DNA of 64,000 nucleotides, from the sequence record PQ567651.1; one strand, given 5' to 3'. Under the pieces are notes generated by a model. That model had not been told where the DNA came from, ran no database searches, and worked only from the letters and a program-made list of their open reading frames with translations. The translations under genes and the position numbers were made by a program. Position 1 is the first letter of the stretch; each line of letters starts with the position of its first letter. Of the stretch, positions 42,773 through 55,596 are shown piece by piece. This DNA comes from Escherichia phage cardinal.

Positions 42773-44545
42773 GTGTCTTATGTTGTAAATAAATATGGGT
42801 ATAACATTGATCTAAGTCAAGAAGGACATACTGGGTGTCCTCGTTGTATGAAAGGAGGGCGTGATCGATCACAAAACAATTTGATGGTATATGGCTTAGA
42901 TGCCGATGAAGACCATCGAGGCGCACATTGTTTTTCTTGTGGCTTTACTATCCCTGATCAAAAATGGTTAAATGCACACGGCGAAGAAATTGAAGAGGAG
43001 GATATCTTGGGTAGTGAGTTTAATCCAGAAGTACATGATAAACTAAAAGCCAGCACTGGAACTAATCCAAAAGGTTATCGCGGTATTCGTGAAGATATCT
43101 CTAAGCCTTTCGGTGTACGTTATATGTACGATGAAGCTACTGGCGAAGTAATTTCAACACTATACCCTACAACTAAAGATTACAATATTGCTGGGTATAA
43201 ACAACGTATCGATCCAAAAGATTTCTCACATCCTATAGGTGAAACAGGAAAGGATTGTGATCTTTTTGGGGAGTTTAAATATCGTAACCACAGCGGTACT
43301 ATTCTAATCGTTGGTGGTGAACACGATATGCTGGCTGCAACACAGATGCTAAAAGATTATAACAAGGGTGGTAAATATCCTGTTCCTGCTGTAGTATCTG
43401 GTACTTGTGGCGAAACATCTCTGCATAAGCAGCTTCAACATCGTTATAAATTCTTAGATCAATTTAAAAAGATTGTTCTATGTATGGATAATGATGAAGC
43501 TGGACGTGCAGCAGTTGAGAAATGTGTTAAAATCTTACCACGTAATAAAGTTTACGTGATGGAACTAACGGATGTTAAAGATCCTAACCAGGCACTAGTA
43601 GAAGGAAAAATTGATCATTTTATTGATCGCTTTTTCAAAGCTAAACTGTACACACCTGCTGGTGTTTACGCTTCTAACGTACTATATGAAGCAGCCTTGG
43701 AATGCCTGGAAGCTAAAATGATCACCCTTCCTCCATTCATGCGTGTTGCTTCTAACATGTTAGGTGGAGGCTTGGTAGAAGAAGAAATTACTGTTATACT
43801 TGCAAAAACAAGTATCGGTAAAACACTGTTGGTTAACGAGATTACGAAGCACATTATTCTTGCACACCCAGAACATACTCTTGGTATTTTATCTTTGGAG
43901 GCAACGTATAAGAAGTATTCTCGTAACTTACTGTCTTCATTCTTGCACATCCCTCTTCACCGTAAAACAAAAGAAGAGAAGGAAAAGATTTTAAAAGATA
44001 ATGAAGAAAAGATTCGTGATTTTTACGAACGAGAAGATGGAACACCACGTTTCTATGTTTGTGATGATCGTGGAGCTAACGTAGATGTGATTAAAGAGAA
44101 GGTTCTGGAAATGATTATTTATTTCGGAGTAACCATTCTTGTTATCGACCCTTATTCTGACTTGCTTTCTGGTATGGACGTGTCACAACAAGAGGAACTT
44201 GCGACGTGGCTCAAACGCATTATGAAAGAGTACGCAATTACCATTGTTGTAATTTCACACGTTAAAAAGTCTTCTAACAATAGTAATGAACATATTGTAG
44301 AAGATGATGCAATGGGTAGTAGCTTCCTTGCTAAAGGTGCTGGTATCACAATTGCGCTGGAGCGTGATAAACAAGCTGAAGATCCTATGGAACGTAACCG
44401 CACATATTGCTACATTCTAAAGAACCGTGAGTTCTCAGAGACTGGTGCAGCAGGTAGTTTCTTCTATGAGATTAAAACAGCGACACTTCACGATTACGAT
44501 CAATACACAAGTAACCCAGAGAATATTCCTGATGGTTCTTATTAA
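42773..44545 (+). CDS. T7 gp4-like bifunctional primase-helicase
   Basis: N-terminal zinc finger CPRC...CFSC, central TOPRIM-like region (ILIVGGEHDMLA, CMDNDEAG), C-terminal DnaB-like helicase with Walker A AKTSIGKT. Confidence 0.8.
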   Translation: MSYVVNKYGYNIDLSQEGHTGCPRCMKGGRDRSQNNLMVYGLDADEDHRGAHCFSCGFTIPDQKWLNAHGEEIEEEDILGSEFNPEVHDKLKASTGTNPKGYRGIREDISKPFGVRYMYDEATGEVISTLYPTTKDYNIAGYKQRIDPKDFSHPIGETGKDCDLFGEFKYRNHSGTILIVGGEHDMLAATQMLKDYNKGGKYPVPAVVSGTCGETSLHKQLQHRYKFLDQFKKIVLCMDNDEAGRAAVEKCVKILPRNKVYVMELTDVKDPNQALVEGKIDHFIDRFFKAKLYTPAGVYASNVLYEAALECLEAKMITLPPFMRVASNMLGGGLVEEEITVILAKTSIGKTLLVNEITKHIILAHPEHTLGILSLEATYKKYSRNLLSSFLHIPLHRKTKEEKEKILKDNEEKIRDFYEREDGTPRFYVCDDRGANVDVIKEKVLEMIIYFGVTILVIDPYSDLLSGMDVSQQEELATWLKRIMKEYAITIVVISHVKKSSNNSNEHIVEDDAMGSSFLAKGAGITIALERDKQAEDPMERNRTYCYILKNREFSETGAAGSFFYEIKTATLHDYDQYTSNPENIPDGSY

Positions 44546-44555
44546 GGAGAGAAAT

Positions 44556-44951
44556 ATGAAAGACAACGAAAATATCCTCTATGGAGTATCCCCTTCTGCG
44601 TTAGGGTATGATTATACGAAAACTATTGCTAAGTTTAAATTTCAAGATGGATCGGAGTTAGAACCATACGGTTATGCTTATGGTGAACATTTGTGGTTTG
44701 AGGATGGTTGCCTATACCTTCTCATTCAAACTACCAGTGGTTTTGTGGGAGAGCTTGTAGATCGTATGCTGAAAAATGTTAGTGATAAAGTTGTTCTTGA
44801 TATCGCTAGTAAGGATGAAAACATTAATAACATTGTTTCCACTTTTAATGGTTTGACAGGCACTGTTAAAATTGAACGTGTAGGCTTGAGAAATACCAAT
44901 GGTGTCCCTAATTGCCTTATTAAAGTACAACTAAGTGCTGACAATAAATAA
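44556..44951 (+). CDS. hypothetical protein
   Basis: 131-aa ORF with GGAGAG RBS. Confidence 0.45.
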   Translation: MKDNENILYGVSPSALGYDYTKTIAKFKFQDGSELEPYGYAYGEHLWFEDGCLYLLIQTTSGFVGELVDRMLKNVSDKVVLDIASKDENINNIVSTFNGLTGTVKIERVGLRNTNGVPNCLIKVQLSADNK

Positions 44952-45041: not shown

Positions 45042-48000
45042 ATGGGAGCTTTTACTTTCGACATTGAAAGTAACAACTTGCTTAATGACGAAAGTGTAGA
45101 TTACTTGGCAAGTCCATATCGTTTAAAAGATAGTTTTGCAATGCACTGTATTGTGTGCGAAAGTCATGAGACTGGAGAGATTATTGCTTTCCATGATGGT
45201 GATAAATATCTTTTCGATGGTCGTCCGTATATTGAGACTGACGGAAAGTATGAATACCGACTGGAGGAATATGAGCATTTAGAATATACCCATTTCCCTC
45301 TTAAAGATTTTCCTGATTTTGTAAATGGAACAGGTAAATTTAAAGGTAATTCAAACTATAAAATTACCAAAGTAGTTGGACATAACATCATTAACTTTGA
45401 CTTACTGGCAATTAAATTATTTTTTAAACTCAACTACAGTATTAAGTACAATACTTGGGGTAATAGTAACATTGAAATTTGTGATACTATGATCTTAAGT
45501 AAGACACTAAACCCTGATCGCTTCGGTGGTCATAGTCTGGCAGAGTTATCTAAGAAAGCTGGAGGGGATGTTAAAATTGATTTTAGAAAAAACATCCCTG
45601 AAACTGAAAGATTTAAAACATTTGCAGCAGATATGCTGTATTACTGTATTTACGATAACAAAGCTAACACCGCAGTGTTCCGTTATTTGATGGAAGAGTG
45701 GGGTGATTATAATAAGTGGTCTGAACCATTTAACTTAGAACAACGTGTAGCTGATATTATTACACGTCAAGAGCACCGTGGCTTTGCTTTCAATATGAAG
45801 CAAGCAGAAGATAATATTCGTGATCTGGATGCTCGAATGGAAGCATGTCGTTTAGAGGCAGAACCTGTGCTACCTCCTAAACCTGCTACTAAAGGTTATT
45901 TGAAATCATTCATTCCACCTAAACTACAGTTTAAAAAGAATGGTGAACCTTCAAGTAACATGATAAAGTTTGCAGAGAAACATTCTGGTGAACTTGTACA
46001 AAAAGAAGATGGTTGGTGGTTATTTGCATTAGGTAAAGAGTTTAAACTGCCTATTCCAGCAGAAGAACCTATTTGTGATCCTACAGTACCTGCTACTTTA
46101 GACGACACTACACATATTAAAAATTGGTTAGTTGGTTTAGGTTGGAGTCCATCTGAATATAAAGATAAAGATATCACTCTTAAATCTGGCACTAAGATTA
46201 AGAAAGATGAAGCACAAATGGAGAAAGCTATTCGTGACTATGTTGATCAAACGTTAGCATCTAACTTCTGCCAGGACAGATGTGATCATCTGGAGTGCAC
46301 ACCAGAAACTTTGGAATGGAAACTAAGAGATCGTATTGCTAAAGCTAAAGGTCGTGGTGTTAAAGTGCTTACTAACCCTTCCTTTACAAAAGGGCAAGAG
46401 AAAGATATTTGTCCTAATTTGGAAGCACTAGGTGAAAAGTTTCCTTATGCTACGCAGATTGTGCAGTATCTTACGTATAAACACCGTAGGAACTCTATTC
46501 TAGGGGGTGGTGCTGATTGGGAAGAAGATGAAGAGGATTACGATAAAGGTTATCTGGCAGCAGTAAGGGCTGATGGTCGTATACCAACCCCTGCTGCAAC
46601 GTGTGATGCAGCTACGTCTCGTATGAAACATAGGTTAGTAGCAAATATCCCACGTGTAACATCTCTGTACGGATATGAAATGCGTAATTTATTTGGTGTA
46701 GAAGTTCCAAAATACTTCCAAATTGGTTATGACTTTGATTCTCTTGAGGCAAAAATAGAATCACACTACTGTGTACCTATGGATGCACAAGCACTAACCC
46801 GTAAAGGTTGGGTTGGTTATCACGATCTACAAGAAGGGGATGAAATCTTAGGATATAACCCAGAAACAGGACTTAAAGAATGGACTAAAGTAAAAGGTAA
46901 GGTCTTCTATAAAAATAGTAAGACGTTTGAGATTAAAGGGAAATCACACACTTACCGTGCAACAGCAGATCACCGTTGGTATGTTAATACCCGTAGTAAA
47001 GGGAATACTTATGTGCCTAAAGTCAGAACAACTGCCGAGCTTTGCACAGGAGATAATATTATTTGTAATGCTCCATTTAACATGGAACAAGATCAGGTAA
47101 ATAGTTTAACTTCTGTTCAACAAGGTAAATGGGATGTTCCGTGGGTAGAGCGTGTAGTTAATATGTCTCATGCCGAGCGTGTGGCTTTCTTGGAAGGTTT
47201 TTTGATTGCGGATGGTTACTGGCATGAACATAAACAAAAACCTGTTTGGCGTTGGGCGCAGAACCCAGGTGAACTTTTTGAAGCAGCTTTAACTGCCTCG
47301 TACCTGGTGCATGGAGGCAATATCTCTGTAGCTTTCAATACAAAAGAGCAGAAAGTAAAAGTGGCAACATTGGCTAACCGCTCTCACATTCCTGTTCAAA
47401 GTTTGACTATTGAAGAGTGGGGTGTAGAGGATGTTTGGTGTCCACAAACAGAACTTGGTACGTGGGTCATGCGTCAGAAAGACTGCATTACCATCACAGG
47501 AAACTGTTGGCGGTACGAGCAGGAACCACACGAATATTGTAATGCTCTATTATTGGAAAAACCTAATGATGTTCATACAATGATGGCTCGACGTATTTCT
47601 GACACTATTGGTCGTAAGTTTGAACGAAGCCCTGCTAAATCTGTTAAGTATGGTATTACTTATGGTGCTCAAGCTGCAAAAGTAGCAAAAACTATAGGTA
47701 GTGATATGTATACAGGACAGCTTGTATACGATGCTTTCTGGGAAGCTGCAAAACCTCTTGCGCTTCTTAAAGAACGTCTGCATGATTTTTGGGTTAAAAC
47801 AGGTAAGAAATACATTCTTGGTATTGATGGTAGGAAAGTACCTACACGATCTGCACACGCAATACTTAACTCTCTGTTCCAGAGTGGTGGTGTTATTTGT
47901 GCAAAAAGAGCAATGGTTATCTACGACGATCTTATCGAAGAAGAAGGATTAGCTGTTGACTTTTTTGTTGATGACTGGAAAAATAAGTCATTCGTTCAAC

Positions 48001-48356
48001 AAATGATTGCATATCACGATGAAGCACAGCTTGAAGTAACTCGTGATCTGGTGCATTTTAAATGGTTCTCTAAAGAATCTTTAGGTTGGACTCAAGTTGA
48101 TGATCCAGAGGAACAAAAGAAAATTGATAAAGAATGTTTGGATAAAGTTAATGCCTGGAAAGAAGAGGAAGAGAAGCGTACTGGCAAGATTTGGGCTAAC
48201 GTACATGAATCTCCAAAAGGTGGTTGGTTTACAGCCTACAGTCGTGCTGGAGAATTAGCATCTATTGCTGTTAATAAAGCTGGTGAGTATTACAATCTTA
48301 ATGTACCTCTCACTGCTGGATACGATGTTGGTAGTTCATGGTCAACTTGTCACTGA
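45042..48356 (+). CDS. family A (Pol I/T7-like) DNA polymerase containing an intein
   Basis: N-terminal 3'-5' exonuclease motif FDIESNNL; motif A region GYDFDSLEAKIESHY | intein | CWRYEQ...; downstream AKSVKYGITYGAQAAKVAKTIG aligns with T7 Pol AKTFIYGFLYGAGDEKIG. Confidence 0.85.
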   Translation: MGAFTFDIESNNLLNDESVDYLASPYRLKDSFAMHCIVCESHETGEIIAFHDGDKYLFDGRPYIETDGKYEYRLEEYEHLEYTHFPLKDFPDFVNGTGKFKGNSNYKITKVVGHNIINFDLLAIKLFFKLNYSIKYNTWGNSNIEICDTMILSKTLNPDRFGGHSLAELSKKAGGDVKIDFRKNIPETERFKTFAADMLYYCIYDNKANTAVFRYLMEEWGDYNKWSEPFNLEQRVADIITRQEHRGFAFNMKQAEDNIRDLDARMEACRLEAEPVLPPKPATKGYLKSFIPPKLQFKKNGEPSSNMIKFAEKHSGELVQKEDGWWLFALGKEFKLPIPAEEPICDPTVPATLDDTTHIKNWLVGLGWSPSEYKDKDITLKSGTKIKKDEAQMEKAIRDYVDQTLASNFCQDRCDHLECTPETLEWKLRDRIAKAKGRGVKVLTNPSFTKGQEKDICPNLEALGEKFPYATQIVQYLTYKHRRNSILGGGADWEEDEEDYDKGYLAAVRADGRIPTPAATCDAATSRMKHRLVANIPRVTSLYGYEMRNLFGVEVPKYFQIGYDFDSLEAKIESHYCVPMDAQALTRKGWVGYHDLQEGDEILGYNPETGLKEWTKVKGKVFYKNSKTFEIKGKSHTYRATADHRWYVNTRSKGNTYVPKVRTTAELCTGDNIICNAPFNMEQDQVNSLTSVQQGKWDVPWVERVVNMSHAERVAFLEGFLIADGYWHEHKQKPVWRWAQNPGELFEAALTASYLVHGGNISVAFNTKEQKVKVATLANRSHIPVQSLTIEEWGVEDVWCPQTELGTWVMRQKDCITITGNCWRYEQEPHEYCNALLLEKPNDVHTMMARRISDTIGRKFERSPAKSVKYGITYGAQAAKVAKTIGSDMYTGQLVYDAFWEAAKPLALLKERLHDFWVKTGKKYILGIDGRKVPTRSAHAILNSLFQSGGVICAKRAMVIYDDLIEEEGLAVDFFVDDWKNKSFVQQMIAYHDEAQLEVTRDLVHFKWFSKESLGWTQVDDPEEQKKIDKECLDKVNAWKEEEEKRTGKIWANVHESPKGGWFTAYSRAGELASIAVNKAGEYYNLNVPLTAGYDVGSSWSTCH
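46770..47504 (+). mobile_element. intein (245 aa) with LAGLIDADG-like endonuclease motif in DNA polymerase
   Basis: Starts CVPMDAQALT, ends ...ITITGN with +1 Cys; internal VAFLEGFLIADGYW resembles a LAGLIDADG motif. Confidence 0.65.
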
Positions 48357-48493
48357 CATCTCTTTGATTTTAAAGGAGTTTTTATGTGGAACAATCTGTG
48401 ATTGCCAAGGTTGTTCCGCACTTTTAAACCATTTCATAATTAGATGTTTGAACATCTAGAATAACGCAAAGACCATAAAAGATAGGAGAAAAT

Positions 48494-49087
48494 ATGAATA
48501 TTGAAGATCAAAAAGTACGAGCTTTAGAAGTATTACGTATGTGCCAACTGGTAGATCCGTTTGCAATTGTAGCTGGCGGCGCTGTACGTGATTGGCGATT
48601 AGAGAAACCTGCGCAAGATATTGACATTTACTTGCGTATGCCTAACCACAATACACTCGTACTAGTAGAGAAATTTTTGATGTTGGGTGTTGGTGCACGT
48701 AATGTTAAACAACTTACTAAGCAAACAGAACACACTTATGCCGAACTACCACATTTGAAATGGGTATTTGAAGCATACTATAAAGATCTTAAGTTTAACT
48801 TTATGATCATGGAAGAAGGTGTACGTAGTGAAATCGTATGGAACTTTGATGTAGCTATCTGCCTGTGTTACTGGGATGGTCAAAATTATGTATATCATCC
48901 AGATTTTGAATTTGCATTGAAGACTAATATTTGCACTATTAATCACCGATACACAGGTAAAGAAGCACACGTCCGTAAAATGGCAGAACGTTTCCCTATG
49001 TTCCGCTTTGTAAAAGACGTTTTCATTCCCAAAGAACCAGAAGTACGTACACTAGATTCATTTAACAGTGAAGAATTTAAAATTTAA
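48494..49087 (+). CDS. Pol-beta-superfamily nucleotidyltransferase (CCA-adding enzyme head-domain-like)
   Basis: FAIVAGGAVRDWRLEKPAQDIDIYL matches the GGaVRD...DiD head-domain signature of tRNA nucleotidyltransferases and poly(A) polymerases. Confidence 0.5.
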   Translation: MNIEDQKVRALEVLRMCQLVDPFAIVAGGAVRDWRLEKPAQDIDIYLRMPNHNTLVLVEKFLMLGVGARNVKQLTKQTEHTYAELPHLKWVFEAYYKDLKFNFMIMEEGVRSEIVWNFDVAICLCYWDGQNYVYHPDFEFALKTNICTINHRYTGKEAHVRKMAERFPMFRFVKDVFIPKEPEVRTLDSFNSEEFKI

Positions 49088-49130
49088 GTGTTGACAAACA
49101 TTATAATTATGTGTTATTATGAGGACTTGA

Positions 49131-49529
49131 ATGACAGATAATCGTTCTAAAATCTTAGTCGAGACGTTTTACAGTAGAGAAACTAATCGTCTTGAGCTAA
49201 CCAAAAAAGATGTTGAACCTCAAGATAATACCTTTTTTATTCAAATACTATGTCTCTTTGGTGGATACAATCGTTTAACAGTGAGAGTAGAAAACAAAGA
49301 GATATCTGAAACCACTATCACAAAACGTGAACTTATGCTACTACAGGATACAATACGAGATGTTTTGGATAATCCTGGAAAAGCAAAAGTAATTAATCTT
49401 GGTGGAGAAAAGATACAAATTCTCCATTTTGAAAGTGGTGAAATAGGCTTTGGTATTGGTCTTGGTAAATACCTGTTGGAAGAAACTGACGCTACTCTTT
49501 TACGAGAGTTTTGTGTTAAAGTAATGTAA
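49131..49529 (+). CDS. hypothetical protein
   Basis: 132-aa ORF. Confidence 0.45.
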   Translation: MTDNRSKILVETFYSRETNRLELTKKDVEPQDNTFFIQILCLFGGYNRLTVRVENKEISETTITKRELMLLQDTIRDVLDNPGKAKVINLGGEKIQILHFESGEIGFGIGLGKYLLEETDATLLREFCVKVM

Positions 49530-49545
49530 CTATAGAGGAGAATTT

Positions 49546-50493
49546 ATGCCAGTAATTAATTCTGAAATCGACCGCCGTACTAAAAAAGAAGCATTCTGGG
49601 CTGAAGGTATCGTCGAATATGTCAAACTAGATAAGTTTGATGAAATGAAAGTCTCTTATATTAAGGTTGCAGGTCAGCCAGATAAGAAAATTGAATCAAC
49701 TCACAAAGCATCTCTGCTTATTAAAGAGAAAGGTGCTGGTGCTGATGATAAGGGTGTTTGGGTTAGCCTAGGTGAAGTTAAACTGCACCCAGAACATGAA
49801 AACCTGCAAGTTAAAGATGGTGATAAGTGGATTACTATCGAAAAAGGTGTAGAAGTAACTATGGATGTTAAACCTTCCGAATGGAATGGCAAAACATACT
49901 ACAACTCCTCTAAAGGTAAAATCACTGTTCTTTCAACAGAAGGTGTTCAGCAAGCACAATCTTCTTCAAAAGGTGGAAATAAGCCATCTAATAACGAAGG
50001 TAGCAAGCCTAACTACAAAAAACGTGATACCGTAGGGATTGAAACAGGACACGCTGTAAACGGCGCTCTGGAGCTTCTACGTGCTGGTGTGAAAGGTGAT
50101 GCTTTCGACTTGGCTGGTGTGGTACAATCTGCAACTGTTACTCTGAAAGCAGAAATTGCTAAAGATCGTGGCGTTGATGTGACTGACTATGATCTTGGTG
50201 CTTCAGTTGGACATGCAATTCTTAACGCTTGTCGTGATCATACAGGTAAAACTGTAACGGCAGAAGAGATTATTGAAGCTGCTCGTGAAGTTCTTGCTTT
50301 GTCTGATAAAGTAGCTGCTGCTATCCGTGGAATGTCTACCCCGGTACAAGAAGTTAAGAAAGAAACTAAAAAAGTAGAGAAGAAAGAGCCAGCACCGAAA
50401 GAACCAGAACCTGTTGTTCAAGATTTCGATGATGATATCCCATTTGCTCCTATTGGTTTGCAGTATGGTCGAAACTTCCTGCACTGTTTCTAA
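49546..50493 (+). CDS. putative ssDNA-binding protein with SSB-type acidic tip motif
   Basis: N-terminal OB-fold-like region, G/S/N-rich linker, and DFDDDIPF (the E. coli SSB C-terminal tip) located 15 residues before the actual C-terminus. Confidence 0.45.
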   Translation: MPVINSEIDRRTKKEAFWAEGIVEYVKLDKFDEMKVSYIKVAGQPDKKIESTHKASLLIKEKGAGADDKGVWVSLGEVKLHPEHENLQVKDGDKWITIEKGVEVTMDVKPSEWNGKTYYNSSKGKITVLSTEGVQQAQSSSKGGNKPSNNEGSKPNYKKRDTVGIETGHAVNGALELLRAGVKGDAFDLAGVVQSATVTLKAEIAKDRGVDVTDYDLGASVGHAILNACRDHTGKTVTAEEIIEAAREVLALSDKVAAAIRGMSTPVQEVKKETKKVEKKEPAPKEPEPVVQDFDDDIPFAPIGLQYGRNFLHCF

Positions 50494-50515
50494 TAGTTAA
50501 ATATTGTGTGAATAT

Positions 50516-50541
50516 AAGGAGCCTAACGGCTCCTTTTCTTT
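50516..50541 (+). terminator. intrinsic terminator
   Basis: aaggagcc-taac-ggctcctt followed by ttctttg. Confidence 0.55.
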
Positions 50542-50553
50542 GAAGGAGATATA

Positions 50554-51285
50554 ATGAGCGAATTTGTAAACAACACCGCATTAAACTACCTGCAAACCCT
50601 CGAAAGCAATAGTGTAGATTTGATTCTTACTGACCCGCCATATGCTATTTCTCGTGACACAAATTTTCAGTCTGGAGAGCCTACTGGAAAAGATACGGAT
50701 AGATTCCGTGTATCTTACAACTTTGGTGATTGGGATGTTGTAGATATTCCTTACTTTAAAGAAGTATTCAAAGAAGCCTACAGGGTGCTTAGAAAAGGTG
50801 GTACTTGCATAGTTTGGTATGATATCTGGAAGATCCAGGAGCTACGTGAAATCCTTGAACCGCTTGGTTTTCGTATGTTCCGTACTATCGAATGGATTAA
50901 AACAAACCCTGTACCCATCAACAGTGGTGTTAACTACCTTAGTAACGCTAAAGAGATGGCTATTGTTTGTGTTAAAGGTTCGAAGCCAACCTTCAATGCT
51001 TCCTACCATAAGGGTGTGTTTGAGTATCCTATCTATCAAGGAGCAGATCGTTTTCATCCAACACAAAAACACTTGACTTTGTTTTGTGACCTTATTAATA
51101 TACACACCAACGAAGGAGATGTAGTCTTAGACTTCTTCTCTGGAAGTGCAACAACACAAGTTGCGGCACTTTTAACAGGTAGAGAATACTTAGGCTGTGA
51201 AGCCGATGTAAATATTTTTAAGCAAGCGGAGGAACGACTAAATGAGTACACTGAACAGCAAAATCACCCTGAAAGCACTGATTAA
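50554..51285 (+). CDS. DNA N6-adenine / N4-cytosine methyltransferase (beta class)
   Basis: Motif IV DLILTDPPYAIS near the N-terminus and AdoMet-binding VLDFFSGSATT near the C-terminus. Confidence 0.75.
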   Translation: MSEFVNNTALNYLQTLESNSVDLILTDPPYAISRDTNFQSGEPTGKDTDRFRVSYNFGDWDVVDIPYFKEVFKEAYRVLRKGGTCIVWYDIWKIQELREILEPLGFRMFRTIEWIKTNPVPINSGVNYLSNAKEMAIVCVKGSKPTFNASYHKGVFEYPIYQGADRFHPTQKHLTLFCDLINIHTNEGDVVLDFFSGSATTQVAALLTGREYLGCEADVNIFKQAEERLNEYTEQQNHPESTD

Positions 51286-51673
51286 CAATGGTATGAACCT
51301 GGACTCTGGTCTGTCTCCAAAGATTTCTATGGCACGACTGGAACAAGTTACTGGTCTTCGTCAAGTAAGTAATGGCGGTAAGATTATTCGTGATGACGCT
51401 GTACCTTTTAATAAATTTCAGATTGAACGTCACTACGATCCTGTAACTGCAAGTCTCACTGGTGTAACTTTCTCAGGTTATCGTACTGCCGGATACCAGC
51501 GTAAGGTTGTAGCTGAACGTATTAAGAGTCGCAAACAGAAAATTGCAACATTGAAGAAACTGGTAGAGAAAGATGTTTCAGAACTTCTTAACCTGTATGA
51601 AACTCTTGAAACAAAAGGTGAAGATCATAAACTCTTCTCTAAAGAAGATGTAAGCGTAATTTTCACTGATTAA
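51242..51673 (+). CDS. hypothetical protein
   Basis: 143-aa ORF overlapping the methyltransferase 3' end; true start may be further in. Confidence 0.4.
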   Translation: MSTLNSKITLKALINNGMNLDSGLSPKISMARLEQVTGLRQVSNGGKIIRDDAVPFNKFQIERHYDPVTASLTGVTFSGYRTAGYQRKVVAERIKSRKQKIATLKKLVEKDVSELLNLYETLETKGEDHKLFSKEDVSVIFTD

Positions 51674-51683
51674 GATAAAAGAA

Positions 51684-51710
51684 AAGGAGCCTATTGGCTC
51701 CTTTTTGTTT
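51684..51710. terminator. bidirectional intrinsic terminator between convergent blocks
   Basis: aaggagcc-tatt-ggctcctt flanked by an A-run and a T-run; separates plus-strand replication genes from minus-strand tail genes. Confidence 0.6.
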
Positions 51711-53595
51711 ATGTAACATTGACTGTAAATCTGACAAGAGGTGATAACACGTCATTATCAGCATCATAGTGTGCAACATCAAACGCTGTTGTACCTGCTG
51801 CAAATCCATATTGTTCAACCTGATCTGCATAAGTAAATGTGTAAGTGTTAGTATCCAGGGTTTGTTCTGTAAGAGTTGCTGTTGTGAGGACGTTTACATT
51901 TCGGAAGTAATGTTTAGTATATCCTGCTGGTTCCCAAGAGATAATTGCATCTTGGTTAGCTTGTCTTACAGCGGCTCCTCCTGTTGGAACAGACATATCA
52001 ACCCAAACAGGTGACGTTGATGTTAAATCTGTACCGTCTGCTGCTGATTTAGCAAGTTTTGTAGCTGCTGTTTGGTATACAGAAGAAATATAATGGATAC
52101 GACCATCAATACCTTCTTCATAAACATAACCACTGTAACGTTCAGCACCATCTACCCAAGAACCAATGATAACATCATCACGTGCTGTAGAGATGGTTCT
52201 TTGTACATTTCTGTACTTCTGCCAATCCACACCATTAACTTCTACACCATATAAATAAGAACGTCCTAGGATCTGCCAAACAATTTTTGCTTGAGAAGCA
52301 GGAACTATTGTACGCATCTTATCAAAGATAGCTATCGTAGCATCATGGTAACGTGTAGTGTTACTGTACCTACCTGCAACAGTCGAAGATGCTGATACAG
52401 CATCATTTTCACCTTGTCCCCAAATAATTGCTTTAACCTTACTTGCATAAGGTGTGACTTTAGTGATAAAGTTAGTTAAGCATGGCCCATCTGCTGTGTT
52501 ATCCAGATCATACCAGTAGTTGTCTGGTGTACCTGTTCCAGCTTTATCGTCAGCATATTTATCTGCTGCTGATGATCCAGAAGCTGTATTTAACGGAAGA
52601 ACTTCAGCATTTGCTAAACCACGTTGCGTAGCATATGCATTACGGGCTGTTGTGCTACCCATTGCTGCTTTATTTGCACCAGATAGTTCTGTAAAGTGTG
52701 CATTTACGTTATCTTGTCCAGCAAAGACAATAACTTCTTTAATGAACGAATCATCTGTAGCTATTGAGTTATTAAAGATAACGGCTGCTGCTTTGGTGCT
52801 CTTAACGCTAATTTTAAGGTATGTTGGAGCAAACCCATAAAGAGGAATAGAGTCAGAGATATCAAAGTAGGCGTAAGTATTCGTGGTTGTTGTAGTCCAC
52901 TGAACACTATTATTACTTAAATCTAATACTTCTACAGTATAAGTATCACCATCTAGCGGATCAGCTACATCCCAAGCAACACGAACGTCTCCATAGCTGT
53001 TTGCCACGGCTGTTACATTAGAGATAACAGGAATAGCATTAACACCTAAATAAGAACTATCAGAGGCCACCACTGTTCCTTGATAAGTTGCAGTACAACC
53101 TATACGGCAATTACCATCTTTAAGAGCAGTTATTAATCCTGTAGGGCTTACAGTAGCTACTTCTGGATCTGTTGTGGTGTACGTAATTACCATGTCTGGA
53201 AGATCTTTAGCACCTTCTGGACTGATTGTAGCAACCAACTGTTGAGTAGTGCCTACATCCATAGCCGATAGACTTTCAGAGTACACACTTAATTCTGAAG
53301 CATAACCACCAGATTGATCAGTTAAGACAGCACCTAAATTATTTTTAGCTGTCATTATTGCATCAAAACCACCTTCGGCAACAAACTCCATCATACCACT
53401 ATTATCTATAACCATTTTGGTATTATCTGAAGATGAAAAAGCTATATCAAATAATGCACCATCTTCCGGTGTAACTGTGTATGTCAGTTGTTTTTTACCA
53501 CCAACTATTGCAATACCAATAGAGGAAGTAGTTATAGATGTAGCTGTTACTACTGAAGCTGATGTTGTTGACATAAATAAAGGAATAGGATACAT
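51709..53595 (-). CDS. tail fibre / tailspike protein with Big_2-like domain and SASA/SGNH-like esterase domain
   Basis: YTTTDPEVATVSPTGLITALKDGNCRI (bacterial Ig-like); VIVFAGQDNVNAHF and KAIIWGQGENDA resemble the GQSNM and QGESD blocks of sialate-O-acetylesterase-type esterases. Confidence 0.55.
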   Translation of the reverse strand: MYPIPLFMSTTSASVVTATSITTSSIGIAIVGGKKQLTYTVTPEDGALFDIAFSSSDNTKMVIDNSGMMEFVAEGGFDAIMTAKNNLGAVLTDQSGGYASELSVYSESLSAMDVGTTQQLVATISPEGAKDLPDMVITYTTTDPEVATVSPTGLITALKDGNCRIGCTATYQGTVVASDSSYLGVNAIPVISNVTAVANSYGDVRVAWDVADPLDGDTYTVEVLDLSNNSVQWTTTTTNTYAYFDISDSIPLYGFAPTYLKISVKSTKAAAVIFNNSIATDDSFIKEVIVFAGQDNVNAHFTELSGANKAAMGSTTARNAYATQRGLANAEVLPLNTASGSSAADKYADDKAGTGTPDNYWYDLDNTADGPCLTNFITKVTPYASKVKAIIWGQGENDAVSASSTVAGRYSNTTRYHDATIAIFDKMRTIVPASQAKIVWQILGRSYLYGVEVNGVDWQKYRNVQRTISTARDDVIIGSWVDGAERYSGYVYEEGIDGRIHYISSVYQTAATKLAKSAADGTDLTSTSPVWVDMSVPTGGAAVRQANQDAIISWEPAGYTKHYFRNVNVLTTATLTEQTLDTNTYTFTYADQVEQYGFAAGTTAFDVAHYDADNDVLSPLVRFTVNVT

Positions 53596-53612
53596 TTAAT
53601 CTCCTTAAACAA

Positions 53613-53632
53613 TAAGCCCCCGAAGGGGCTTT
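53613..53632 (-). terminator. intrinsic terminator
   Basis: agcccc-cgaa-ggggct followed on the minus strand by ttattgttt. Confidence 0.5.
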
Positions 53633-53634
53633 GA

Positions 53635-55596
53635 TTATGTGCGTTTAGCAACAATAGCATCCACGTAATCACCAACACCACAATATGTTAGTTGTAGTAT
53701 TGTTACTCCGTTAGGATTTGTATTAATATCACTAGAACCAATTACTTTGTAAGATGGGTCTAAAGTAACAGTACGACCCCCAGTGGCATCTTGGATAAGA
53801 TAAACTATTGCAGAGAATGGTTTAGGTTTTGTGCTATCTTCGACACCAGGCCATGCTTTTATAGTAGAGTTACCAGTAAGATTCAACACATTCATGTTAT
53901 GTGTTCCTGGAGGTGTCCAGTCCCCTGTAACAGAGTTGTTGGTGTATGCTGTAACCTCTATAAAATTAGTTGTTACTTTTGTTGGAACTATATCTTGACC
54001 ATCTACAGAACTAGTGAGTTCTTCCCATGCTCCATCTTTACGAGCATAGATCTTACCGTCACTAGGTGCATCTGTGATGCTAGGTAGTGTACCTTGAGAA
54101 GTCCAGACAGTTGCAGATGTTTTTAAGAACACCTCACCAGTGGAGATATTAAAGGCATAATCACCTTGTTTACCATCACTAGAAATTGGATCTGTTGTTT
54201 TAACAATCCAATTTGCACCATCCGTACCGTTAGTACCAGCGTCACCTTTCTCACCCTTATCACCTTTCAAACTACCCATATCTACATATTCAGCAGTTTG
54301 AGTTTGTTCATTATAGGTGTAAATGTAAAGATGACCTGTATCTTCCGTCAGATAAGCATCACCGTAATTGGCTGTAGGAGGAAGCGCACTTGCAGACGCA
54401 ACGTGTCCTTTTGCAGTGATTGGAGTACCAGCTAAACGACCAACATTTGTCCACTCTGTGGCTCCTTGCAACCAGACCCAAAGTTCATTATTGATCAGAT
54501 AACCATCACCCTCTTCTCCAGTTTGTGGTAGTTCAGAAGTGTCAGTCAGAATATCAATAATGGTCAACCCTGCACCAGTTGGCCCCGTCAAGCCTTGTAT
54601 ACCCTGCTTACCTTGATCACCCTTGTCTCCCTTATCACCTTTTTCTCCTTTCAGAGAGGCAATATATTCGTCAATAGTACCAACGTTACCAGCGTTTAAC
54701 CAGACTTGATAAGCTGAATCACCAGTGTTACCCTTATCTCCTTTGTCGCCTTTATCTCCTTTTGGCCCCACTATAGCACCCATATTGATCCATTCTACAC
54801 CGTTTGACACGTATAGATATGTACCAATACTCCATGCTTGAGATGTGTTTCCAGGAGATGCAGAAGGAAGATCTGAAACGGAATTAGCTGCACCTTGGTA
54901 ATCAAAACCATTAGCATTGTTACCTGGTACACCTTGTGGCCCCTCTGGGCCAGGCTCCCCTTTATCACCTTTAATTGAAGCAAGATAATCTAGTTCTGTA
55001 CCTTGGTTTCCTGCTGCAAGCCAAACTTGATAAGCTGATTTACCTTCTGGCCCCTGTGAGTTTACTTTTCTCCAAGCAGTACCATCCCAAGCATACATAT
55101 TCTCGCCTACAATCCATGCATCTCCTGCATTGTTTCCGGTTGTAGGTAATTGGTTGGTATTAGATAGTGTCCCTAGCAGCTTTAATGGAGCACCTGGATC
55201 ACCTTTTAAAGAAGCCAACCAGTCTGTCTCAGTACCTTGGAAACCATTGTCTACGGCAATCTGGTAAGCTGATTTACCAGCTTCTGGAATGGATTCTCTA
55301 AGATCTTCAATTTCAGCTTCAATAGCATCTAATTCTGATTCTATTTGAGCAATGTCATCTGCATTACCCACATTTTTCCAAGCTGTATCTGAAATCCCTC
55401 CAGTAGATGTAGGAGTAGAGTTAGCAGGTACAACTTTAGGTAGAGAACCTTTCCACTGATAGTAGTTACCGTCAGTTTCAAAGAGCAATGCTTCACGAGC
55501 ATCTCTTAAGGTAAAACCACTTGCAAAACTTCTACGCTTTCTATAGCGAGACTCTACCATGTCTGCAATGGCACTATTTGGACGTGTTAAAATCAC
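53635..55596 (-). CDS. tail fibre protein with collagen-like Gly-X-Y tracts and phage tail-fibre repeats
   Basis: GDKGEPGPEGPQGVPG, GPKGDKGDKGDKGNTG, GEKGDKGDKGDQGKQGIQG tracts; three copies of SAYQ(V/I)..(A/N)G..GTE.D(W/Y)(L/I)ASLKG. Confidence 0.75.
   Translation of the reverse strand: MILTRPNSAIADMVESRYRKRRSFASGFTLRDAREALLFETDGNYYQWKGSLPKVVPANSTPTSTGGISDTAWKNVGNADDIAQIESELDAIEAEIEDLRESIPEAGKSAYQIAVDNGFQGTETDWLASLKGDPGAPLKLLGTLSNTNQLPTTGNNAGDAWIVGENMYAWDGTAWRKVNSQGPEGKSAYQVWLAAGNQGTELDYLASIKGDKGEPGPEGPQGVPGNNANGFDYQGAANSVSDLPSASPGNTSQAWSIGTYLYVSNGVEWINMGAIVGPKGDKGDKGDKGNTGDSAYQVWLNAGNVGTIDEYIASLKGEKGDKGDKGDQGKQGIQGLTGPTGAGLTIIDILTDTSELPQTGEEGDGYLINNELWVWLQGATEWTNVGRLAGTPITAKGHVASASALPPTANYGDAYLTEDTGHLYIYTYNEQTQTAEYVDMGSLKGDKGEKGDAGTNGTDGANWIVKTTDPISSDGKQGDYAFNISTGEVFLKTSATVWTSQGTLPSITDAPSDGKIYARKDGAWEELTSSVDGQDIVPTKVTTNFIEVTAYTNNSVTGDWTPPGTHNMNVLNLTGNSTIKAWPGVEDSTKPKPFSAIVYLIQDATGGRTVTLDPSYKVIGSSDINTNPNGVTILQLTYCGVGDYVDAIVAKRT

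Follow-up and report, generated by a model that had tools for sequence, protein, structure and literature searches.

Gad2 of Bacillus phage SPbetaL7 counteracts Gabija, a nuclease-type host defence which ranks among the commonest in bacteria and is reported for more than 15% of genomes (PMC10781630). Deletion of gad2 renders SPbetaL7 fully sensitive to Gabija and a Gad2 homologue from a Brevibacillus prophage inhibits Gabija in trans, the Gabija tests having covered these two proteins only; SPbetaL7 Gad2 is toxic when expressed, and a nucleotidyltransferase domain is predicted for it by AlphaFold (bioRxiv 10.1101/2023.05.01.538930). With regard to Gabija itself, one report describes GajB as a sensor of DNA termini with hydrolytic activity on (d)ATP and (d)GTP, and states that nucleoside triphosphates (NTPs) inhibit DNA binding by GajA (bioRxiv 10.1101/2023.05.02.539174); in Pseudomonas, the sites of action of the system are those ends of phage genomes where RecBCD is not active (PMC12904381). 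Here we describe an open reading frame (ORF) of the phi92-like Escherichia phage cardinal (sequence record PQ567651.1), situated in a stretch of 64,000 nucleotides (nt) which as a whole is called the window in the following. This ATG-started ORF, at 48494..49087 on the + strand with the stop codon included, codes for a protein of 197 amino acyl residues (aa), which is the equivalent of gp158 from Escherichia phage phi92 and is referred to as gp158 throughout. It is a minimal nucleotidyltransferase of the family PF26128 (Gad2) / PHROG 1614, and we are highly confident of this family assignment and of the fold assigned to the protein. The whole layered interpretation, that is an active minimal Gad2-family nucleotidyltransferase serving counter-defence, is offered tentatively, being to our mind nearly as probable as its opposite.

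Preceding the ATG by 5 nt, a ribosome-binding site AGGAG can be read from the sequence at 48484..48488 on the + strand, and the same site is annotated for gene 158 of phi92 (Justusliebigvirus, Stephanstirmvirinae), with which the 8-kb stretch around the ORF shares 98.4% DNA identity. Residues 7-193 match PHROG 1614 ‘nucleotidyltransferase’ with an E value of 2.6e-34, which places the observation far beyond chance. Together with invariant catalytic residues and a well-defined structural model (mean predicted local distance difference test, pLDDT, of 92.2), these data confirm the 197-aa ORF with its GGAVRD and DIDI motifs, which a preliminary description had recognized, as a real gene. The gene is already annotated, phi92 gene 158 being named ‘nucleotidyltransferase’ in RefSeq and ‘conserved hypothetical protein’ in the original deposit, and its family is already contained in Pfam and PHROGs.

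The conserved catalytic unit comprises aa 1-175 (48494..49018, + strand) and consists of an N-terminal helix, a five-stranded Pol-beta core, and a first neck-like helix with strands; it corresponds to the head and the start of the neck in class II CCA-adding enzymes. The first half of motif A, G28-G29-A-V-R32-D33-W34 (48575..48595, + strand), contains GGAVRD at aa 28-33 (nt 48575-48592), in which GG forms the usual triphosphate-binding turn, followed by a tryptophan, W34, which is invariant and specific to the gp158 family. The second half, D42-I-D44 (48617..48625, + strand), which belongs to DIDI at aa 42-45 (nt 48617-48628), supplies the two catalytic aspartates that bind metal; neither varies among the aligned members, and their counterparts in Gad2 are D45 and D47. 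Further downstream, N117-F-D-V-A-I-C123 (48842..48862, + strand) aligns with ‘TFDFTVC’ of Gad2 in hhalign and would be placed opposite the motif B region of class II enzymes by manual alignment to E. coli Cca. Column conservation was counted over 118-133 aligned family members. G28, G29, W34, D42, and D44 are invariant across 118 of them, Q6, A10, A27, A30, R32, D33, Y82, and K162 are kept by 90% or more of the members, and Q/N102, F118, S-I-C121-123, W126, F138, Y153, and F167-P168 are strongly conserved as well. As the GG turn and the DxD metal site are intact, gp158 is probably an active enzyme. In contrast to the catalytic unit, the C-terminal tail, aa 176-197 (49019..49084, + strand), is not conserved, consists mostly of gaps in the family alignment, and shows pLDDT values of 57-61 in its last two blocks.

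The gp158 family is large, although a word-indexed search with the single protein returned only two clusters of homologues; it becomes visible only in an exhaustive HMMER search, covering 1.84 billion representatives of clusters at 50% identity, which retrieves 997 representatives at E<=1e-3, 280 of them with E<=1e-10. Almost all are stand-alone proteins of 175-230 aa that match query positions 1-175, and the shortness of gp158 therefore is a family trait and not a truncation, so that body and tail domains are indeed missing, as had been noted at the outset. The extra domains of longer family members have no Pfam matches and hence these fusions give no functional hint. Among phages, the protein is 98-100% conserved in 55 records of phi92-like phages, homologues with 31-53% identity exist in Phapecoctavirus and in Klebsiella, Citrobacter, Pseudomonas, Vibrio, and Aeromonas phages, and nucleotidyltransferase homologues occur in 195 records, of which 58 are Vibrio phages. 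Five records labelled ‘Campylobacter phage’ with Campylobacter jejuni as host (MG065639.1 among them) share about 98.5% identity with the present E. coli phage lineage, and their host label seems doubtful. The homologue in Vibrio phage ICP1_2006_A (L004, 3959-4378) has only 139 aa and retains GGAPRDW and DLD; it stops just past an F-x-x-S-V-C motif, where an overlapping 74-aa ORF follows, and is either a naturally shorter version or a disrupted gene. A link to Oad1, the anti-OLD protein of ICP1, was considered and dismissed, Oad1 being gp205 and apparently a different gene from the ICP1 homologue ORF223.

An AlphaFold2 model built from the family alignment, with a predicted template modelling score of 0.85, has pLDDT values above 90 up to about aa 175 and is poor only in the last ~20 residues. 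When this model was compared to the PDB with Foldseek, the top 44 matches were all class II enzymes, with template modelling (TM) scores of 0.5-0.57 over 175-200 columns, and only the N-terminal parts of these CCA-adding enzyme targets of 340-520 aa were aligned, from which it follows that gp158 consists of the head and the beginning of the neck. The fold is that of the head domain of class II enzymes. At the sequence level, a direct PDB search with the single protein gave chance-level matches only, and the family profile reached class II enzymes, in motif A only.

The family clusters retrieved from the annotated database bear the precomputed label PF26128 ‘Gad2’. On protein cluster P0001, which is 99% identical to the ORF, it stands unmarked, which denotes E<=1e-5; among the matches listed for authentic Gad2 (OQ921347, 109563-110765; 400 aa with the nucleotidyltransferase domain at the N-terminus), 119 of 120 homologues carry PF26128. 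In hhalign comparisons, the gp158 family aligns with the single Gad2 sequence over 117 columns (90.7%, E 1.2e-6) and with a profile of Gad2 homologues over 114 columns (96.6%, E 5.2e-10), whereas single sequences of E. coli PcnB (59%, E 9.3e-5, 51 columns of motif A only) and E. coli Cca (24%, E 8.5e-4, 24 columns) score lower. Pairwise BLASTP of gp158 with Gad2 recovers motif A only (E 6e-5), and a hidden Markov model (HMM) of the Gad2 N-domain matches only the gp158 ORF in the window and the phi92 regions examined (E 1.6e-5). Gad2, which like gp158 is phage-encoded, has in common with it AGG(A) and D-x-D-I-Y, a strand with ‘vQ(l/i)(M/I)’, and also F-D-x-x-x-C. Judged by their sequences, phi92-type proteins are nearer to Gad2 than they are to bona fide class II enzymes, as the hhalign scores of 90.7-96.6% versus 24-59% indicate, and homology of gp158 to the Gad2 nucleotidyltransferase domain is demonstrable at this level. 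The class II ‘RD’ after the GG turn is kept in phi92-type proteins and lost in Gad2. P0060, a protein of 400 aa with its domain at 214-384, was also considered as Gad2 and discarded, since it belongs to the clade of Gram-negative phages and itself carries an unrelated N-terminal extension, whereas the domain of Gad2 is N-terminal.

The gp158 family is an offshoot of the head domain of class II CCA-adding enzymes as well as poly(A) polymerases. In class II enzymes, the arginines of the RRD in motif B (consensus ‘RRDFTIN’) read the ribose 2'-OH, EDxxR of motif D constitutes the amino-acid template for C and A, and body and tail domains hold the tRNA or RNA. Motif A of this class (GGxVRD, then DxD) is present in gp158, and a CCA-adding-enzyme-like head, as initially proposed, holds with respect to the stand-alone Pol-beta-type fold, not with respect to membership in the PolyA_pol/CCA family. 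Pfam PolyA_pol (PF01743) scores 19.1 bits where its gathering score is 23, and of its 126 profile positions only 3-59 are covered; only 17 of the 118 family members reach E<=0.01 with it, so that the HMM search suggested in the preliminary description does not place gp158 in that family. The NCBIfam CCA equivalogs remain under their cut-offs as well, NF009814 with 15 bits against 290 and TIGR03671 with 13.9 against 281. In motif B, RRD is replaced by N117-F118-D119 and both ribose-reading arginines are missing; among family members, position 117 varies, position 118 holds F in 115 of 133, and P, D, or S stands at 119, this placement of motif B resting on hhalign to ‘TFDFTVC’ of Gad2 and on manual alignment to ‘RRDLTINA’ of E. 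coli Cca. A conserved E-D-x-x-R is not found in aa 150-170 of the family alignment, the register with class II enzymes being inferred there; conserved instead are Y153, H/Y159, K162, and F167-P168. The third acidic position appears to be taken by Q/N102. With 197 aa and a conserved core of 175 aa, gp158 has neither a body nor a tail domain and is less than half as long as class II enzymes and poly(A) polymerase I (PDB 3aql, 4wby, 1miv, 3h37, and 1ou5). No tRNA genes were found in the 64-kb window, all 15 tRNA genes of phi92, which are located outside the part covered by the window, encode their own CCA, and E. coli possesses its own Cca; a need of the phage for CCA addition to its own tRNAs was therefore rejected. 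Sub-threshold PolyA_pol and NCBIfam matches, the loss of RRD and EDxxR, the missing body and tail, and the CCA-encoding tRNA genes together argue that gp158 is not a CCA-adding enzyme, although in GenBank several depositors use the name ‘putative tRNA nucleotidyl transferase / poly(A) polymerase’ for homologues from Phapecoctavirus.

The genomic context of gp158 is a replication module. Immediately upstream, a family A DNA polymerase, probably interrupted by an intein, is encoded at 45042..48356 on the + strand; it has 1104 aa in the window and in phi92 whereas the version of a close relative (L015) has 859 aa, the records of other relatives annotate an ‘intein-containing DNA polymerase precursor’, and Pfam DNA_pol_A is matched only at residues 839-1002. 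The intein probably comprises about 245 aa, starting near ‘CVPMDAQ...’ and ending near ‘...ITITGN/C’. Downstream, at 49131..50493 on the + strand, a 132-aa protein (PHROG 16560) and a 315-aa protein resembling single-stranded DNA-binding proteins (SSB) are encoded. The latter (49546-50493, + strand; PHROG 4477) has a weak match to an SSB PHROG, contains ‘...DFDDDIPF...’ near its C-terminus with 17 residues beyond, and is called SSB in the records of some relatives; DDDIPF-type motifs are typical of the acidic tip of SSB. The block formed by the polymerase, the nucleotidyltransferase, and the proteins of ~132 and ~315 aa recurs with the same gene order in Justusliebigvirus, Phapecoctavirus, and Pseudomonas phage PsgM04F, so that the slot of gp158 is conserved in three phage groups. 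The fuller conserved order reads primase/helicase, (endonuclease), DNA polymerase, (small ORFs), nucleotidyltransferase, ~132 aa, and ~315 aa. The 132-aa gene was rejected as an obligate partner of gp158; it occurs in 133 records, all of enterobacterial-type phages, versus the 195 records for the nucleotidyltransferase that include 58 Vibrio phages. Between the stop codon of the nucleotidyltransferase gene and the next gene, a sigma-70-like match, TTGACA-18-TATTAT (11/12, with TG), is located at 49091..49120 on the + strand and would give the next gene its own transcription start, but it is a consensus match only, and such matches are no more numerous in the region than in shuffled sequences.

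In the same region, a listed 174-aa ORF with a GTG start (44427-44951, + strand) overlaps the end of the primase/helicase gene. Its true start probably is an internal ATG, because the match to PHROG 22634 begins at residue 44 and the phi92 version has 131 aa (‘potential endonuclease/hydrolase’). Two genes downstream of gp158, an N6/N4 DNA methyltransferase of 243 aa (50554-51285, + strand) matches PF01555 with E 1.9e-30, and in the phi92 regions covered four further DNA methyltransferase genes (gp43, gp56, gp121, and gp155) are annotated. Outside the window, at 48179-54544 of phi92, genes for PRPP synthetase and nicotinamide phosphoribosyltransferase (NAMPT) adjoin the cluster of 15 tRNA genes; this NAD-salvage pair recalls the NARP2 counter-defence pathway, and one annotated ‘tRNA’ feature inside the NAMPT gene is not called by ARAGORN. 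Distant members of the family have other neighbours, in one case Thy1 on one side and primase / DNA_pol_A on the other, in another case an RNA-repair-like cluster of RNA ligase, RlaP, and a kinase within a few kb, and in a third case NAMPT, an NMNAT-like protein, and RNA ligase, while the ICP1 homologue is situated between a DNA ligase gene and genes for PRPP synthetase and NadV. In Erwinia phages, ‘gad2’ detections co-occur perfectly with NARP2 NAD-salvage genes (PMC13480210), a coincidence that may reflect shared ancestry rather than shared function.

The gp158 protein would be made together with the replication proteins and, using an NTP or a deoxynucleoside triphosphate (dNTP) and two Mg2+, would add a nucleotide to a hydroxyl acceptor, for which a nucleic-acid 3' end exposed during phage DNA replication is the most plausible candidate. 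Such a transfer would weaken a nuclease-type defence of the host, one responding to DNA ends or to levels of nucleotides, for which Gabija is the prototype. Two relatives are toxic on overexpression, SPbetaL7 Gad2 and gp22 from Klebsiella phage fHe-Kpn01, this last one in E. coli (PMC7291057), which fits an enzyme acting on a cellular substrate. Of the functions considered in the preliminary description, defence evasion became the better lead through the PF26128 label and the homology to the Gad2 domain; the counter-defence role of gp158 itself, though we hold it to be the most plausible one, nevertheless stays somewhat doubtful. The more specific view that gp158-type proteins constitute a widespread counter-defence class of the replication module, capping 3' ends of phage or nicked DNA (or another acceptor) with added nucleotides and thereby keeping end-sensing or NTP-sensing nucleases such as Gabija from being triggered, seems unlikely.

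Several points weigh against a role of gp158 in counter-defence. The homology to Gad2 is limited to the catalytic core (114-117 columns with ~25% identity), and Gad2 has 400 aa with ~250 aa following the domain, whereas gp158 with its 197 aa is the domain alone; the listed Gad2 homologues have mostly 386-474 aa, and the C-terminal region of ~250 aa that is absent from gp158 could carry the specificity for Gabija. Gad2 possesses GGAITS without the R-D-W triad, in contrast to the near-invariant GGA(P/V)RDW of the gp158 family. Also, the Bacillus phage that encodes Gad2 is temperate and has the gene in an anti-defence locus, whereas gp158 comes from a virulent E. coli myovirus and is part of the replication module, between DNA polymerase and an SSB-like gene and not in an accessory or anti-defence locus, a placement that is also compatible with housekeeping nucleic-acid metabolism. 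Closer Gad2-type genes, with ~40% identity to aa 1-196 of Gad2, exist in many phages of Gram-negative bacteria, including Vequintavirinae and jumbo phages of Erwinia, Yersinia, and Pectobacterium, and in Salmonella phage SSE121 such a gene lies in an accessory region near spanin and terminase genes. As closer Gad2-type genes exist elsewhere and the SSE121 copy is located outside the replication module, gp158 belongs to a separate clade and is not a positional orthologue. According to a 2026 review, the mechanism of Gad2 is still not elucidated (PMC12904381), so that nothing beyond ‘enzymatic counter-defence’ is transferable from it, and nothing in the present analysis ties phi92-like phages to meeting or resisting Gabija. 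Positional orthology of gp158 with the closer gene of Vequintavirinae was likewise rejected because of the different location in SSE121. In that phage (L019, 4639-6055), the Gad2-type gene is matched in two pieces, the ORFs gp008 (184 aa) and gp009 (269 aa), so that in several Vequintavirinae-like phages the gene may be split or contain a frameshift or an insertion.

Other functions have to be weighed against counter-defence. Repair of tRNA 3' ends, which had been suggested for this ORF, would mean that C and/or A are added to tRNAs whose CCA end host stress or a defence or toxin nuclease has trimmed, in order to sustain translation during infection. The nearest solved structures, which are CCA-, CC-, and A-adding enzymes, the class II motif A, the names given to Phapecoctavirus homologues by several depositors, and the one distant member near RNA ligase, RlaP, and a kinase would fit such a role, as would the investment of phi92 in translation with its 15 tRNA genes. 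The idea is weakened, however, since all 15 tRNA genes encode CCA and domains holding the tRNA are absent; besides, E. coli has Cca, conservation of RRD and EDxxR is lacking, the matches to PolyA_pol and to the CCA models of NCBIfam stay under their cut-offs, PolyA_pol reaching only a small minority of members, and structurally related small nucleotidyltransferases are found in podophages, which are not known to carry tRNA genes. On balance we consider tRNA repair improbable. Of the two class II enzymes compared by profile, poly(A) polymerase I matches better (59%), and gp158 might be a stripped-down version of it that tails host or phage RNAs, marking them for decay or altering their stability during host take-over; the toxicity of overexpressed relatives would fit uncontrolled tailing. 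Yet the alignment to PcnB is confined to the 51 columns of motif A, the C-terminal RNA-binding regions of poly(A) polymerase I are missing from gp158, evidence for RNA binding by gp158 is lacking, and the conserved neighbours are DNA replication genes, which together render RNA tailing quite improbable.

A function in DNA metabolism without any role in immunity, as a template-independent terminal transferase or a DNA-modifying enzyme for replication, recombination, or genome ends, would agree with the polymerase/SSB-like slot conserved in the three phage groups and with the member located between Thy1 and primase / DNA_pol_A, and loss of the RRD arginines would permit the use of dNTPs. The authors of the BASEL collection also point to a nucleotidyltransferase gene which Gordonclarkvirinae have among their replication genes, and they speculate on DNA modification (PMC11990801). 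Many family members are located outside replication modules, however, ICP1 keeps only the 139-aa version, gp158 has no DNA-binding domain, and the sole homologue studied by experiment has a counter-defence function and is not needed for growth; we regard such an accessory function as improbable, too. Finally, a protein as small as gp158, with no obvious domain for binding a macromolecule, might make or modify a small nucleotide, for example a decoy keeping an NTP-sensing nuclease off or a competitor of immune signalling nucleotides. Inhibition of GajA DNA binding by NTPs would allow a stable nucleotide analogue to silence GajA, and for another phage nucleotidyltransferase family, that of Bcp1, synthesis of a cyclic nucleotide acting as competitor is reported (bioRxiv 10.1101/2025.06.06.658234). 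As the Bcp1-type motifs (GS..SDxD and NPxhh[DE]) are not present in gp158 and PADLOC gives no match, this possibility seems very improbable.

The gp158 protein represents the catalytic core alone, encoded in well-studied and easily grown phages such as phi92 and the Justusliebigvirus isolates of the BASEL collection. If it shares the activity of Gad2, gp158 would be a convenient compact model for the unsolved chemistry of Gad2, and if capping of 3' ends is what it does, the bare 175-aa core would reveal the catalytic principle of Gad2. In contrast, if its activity differs, the ‘Gad2’ label that spreads by automatic annotation and anti-defence finders covers other roles as well. In either case, the label ‘tRNA nucleotidyltransferase / poly(A) polymerase’ on homologues is not justified by sequence, and caution is advisable when ‘CCA-adding’ or ‘Gad2’ labels are transferred on the basis of homology.

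Among other nucleotidyltransferases, the antibiotic-modifying enzymes (ANT / Lnu / AadB), a best match to which had been named as the case that would speak against the initial assignment, are neither the best profile match nor the best structural match of gp158. With regard to CD-NTase / cGAS-like and defence-system nucleotidyltransferases, PADLOC has no match for gp158 and the closest fold is not CD-NTase. A counterpart in architecture is PDB 2la3 (NP_344798.1), a stand-alone ‘CCA-adding enzyme head domain’ of 191 aa deposited as ‘uncharacterized protein’, although its identity to gp158 is only 9% and the family profile does not detect it at the sequence level. When predicted viral structures are searched with Foldseek, many stand-alone proteins of 165-215 aa with the fold of gp158 are obtained, among them ICP1 ORF223, ‘nucleotidyltransferases’ of Pectobacterium, Dickeya, Pseudomonas, and Caulobacter podophages, and giant-virus proteins. 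Small podophage enzymes of putative activity include gp28 of Pectobacterium phage PP47, gp24 of Q19, gp22 of Klebsiella phage fHe-Kpn01, and that of the phiKMV-like phage LKD16, and genes between the helicase and polymerase genes of podophages have been described as putative tRNA nucleotidyltransferases (PMC7693777); the helicase-polymerase region of KP34 contains no such gene. These podophage enzymes differ from gp158 in that their identity to it is 14-20%, they are not recovered by tblastn with the gp158 ORF, and several of them are named ‘Poly A polymerase head domain-containing’ and so are closer to PF01743. They resemble gp158 in being stand-alone proteins of 165-200 aa that share its fold, with Foldseek E values of ~1e-7 to 1e-8 and TM scores of 0.55-0.6.

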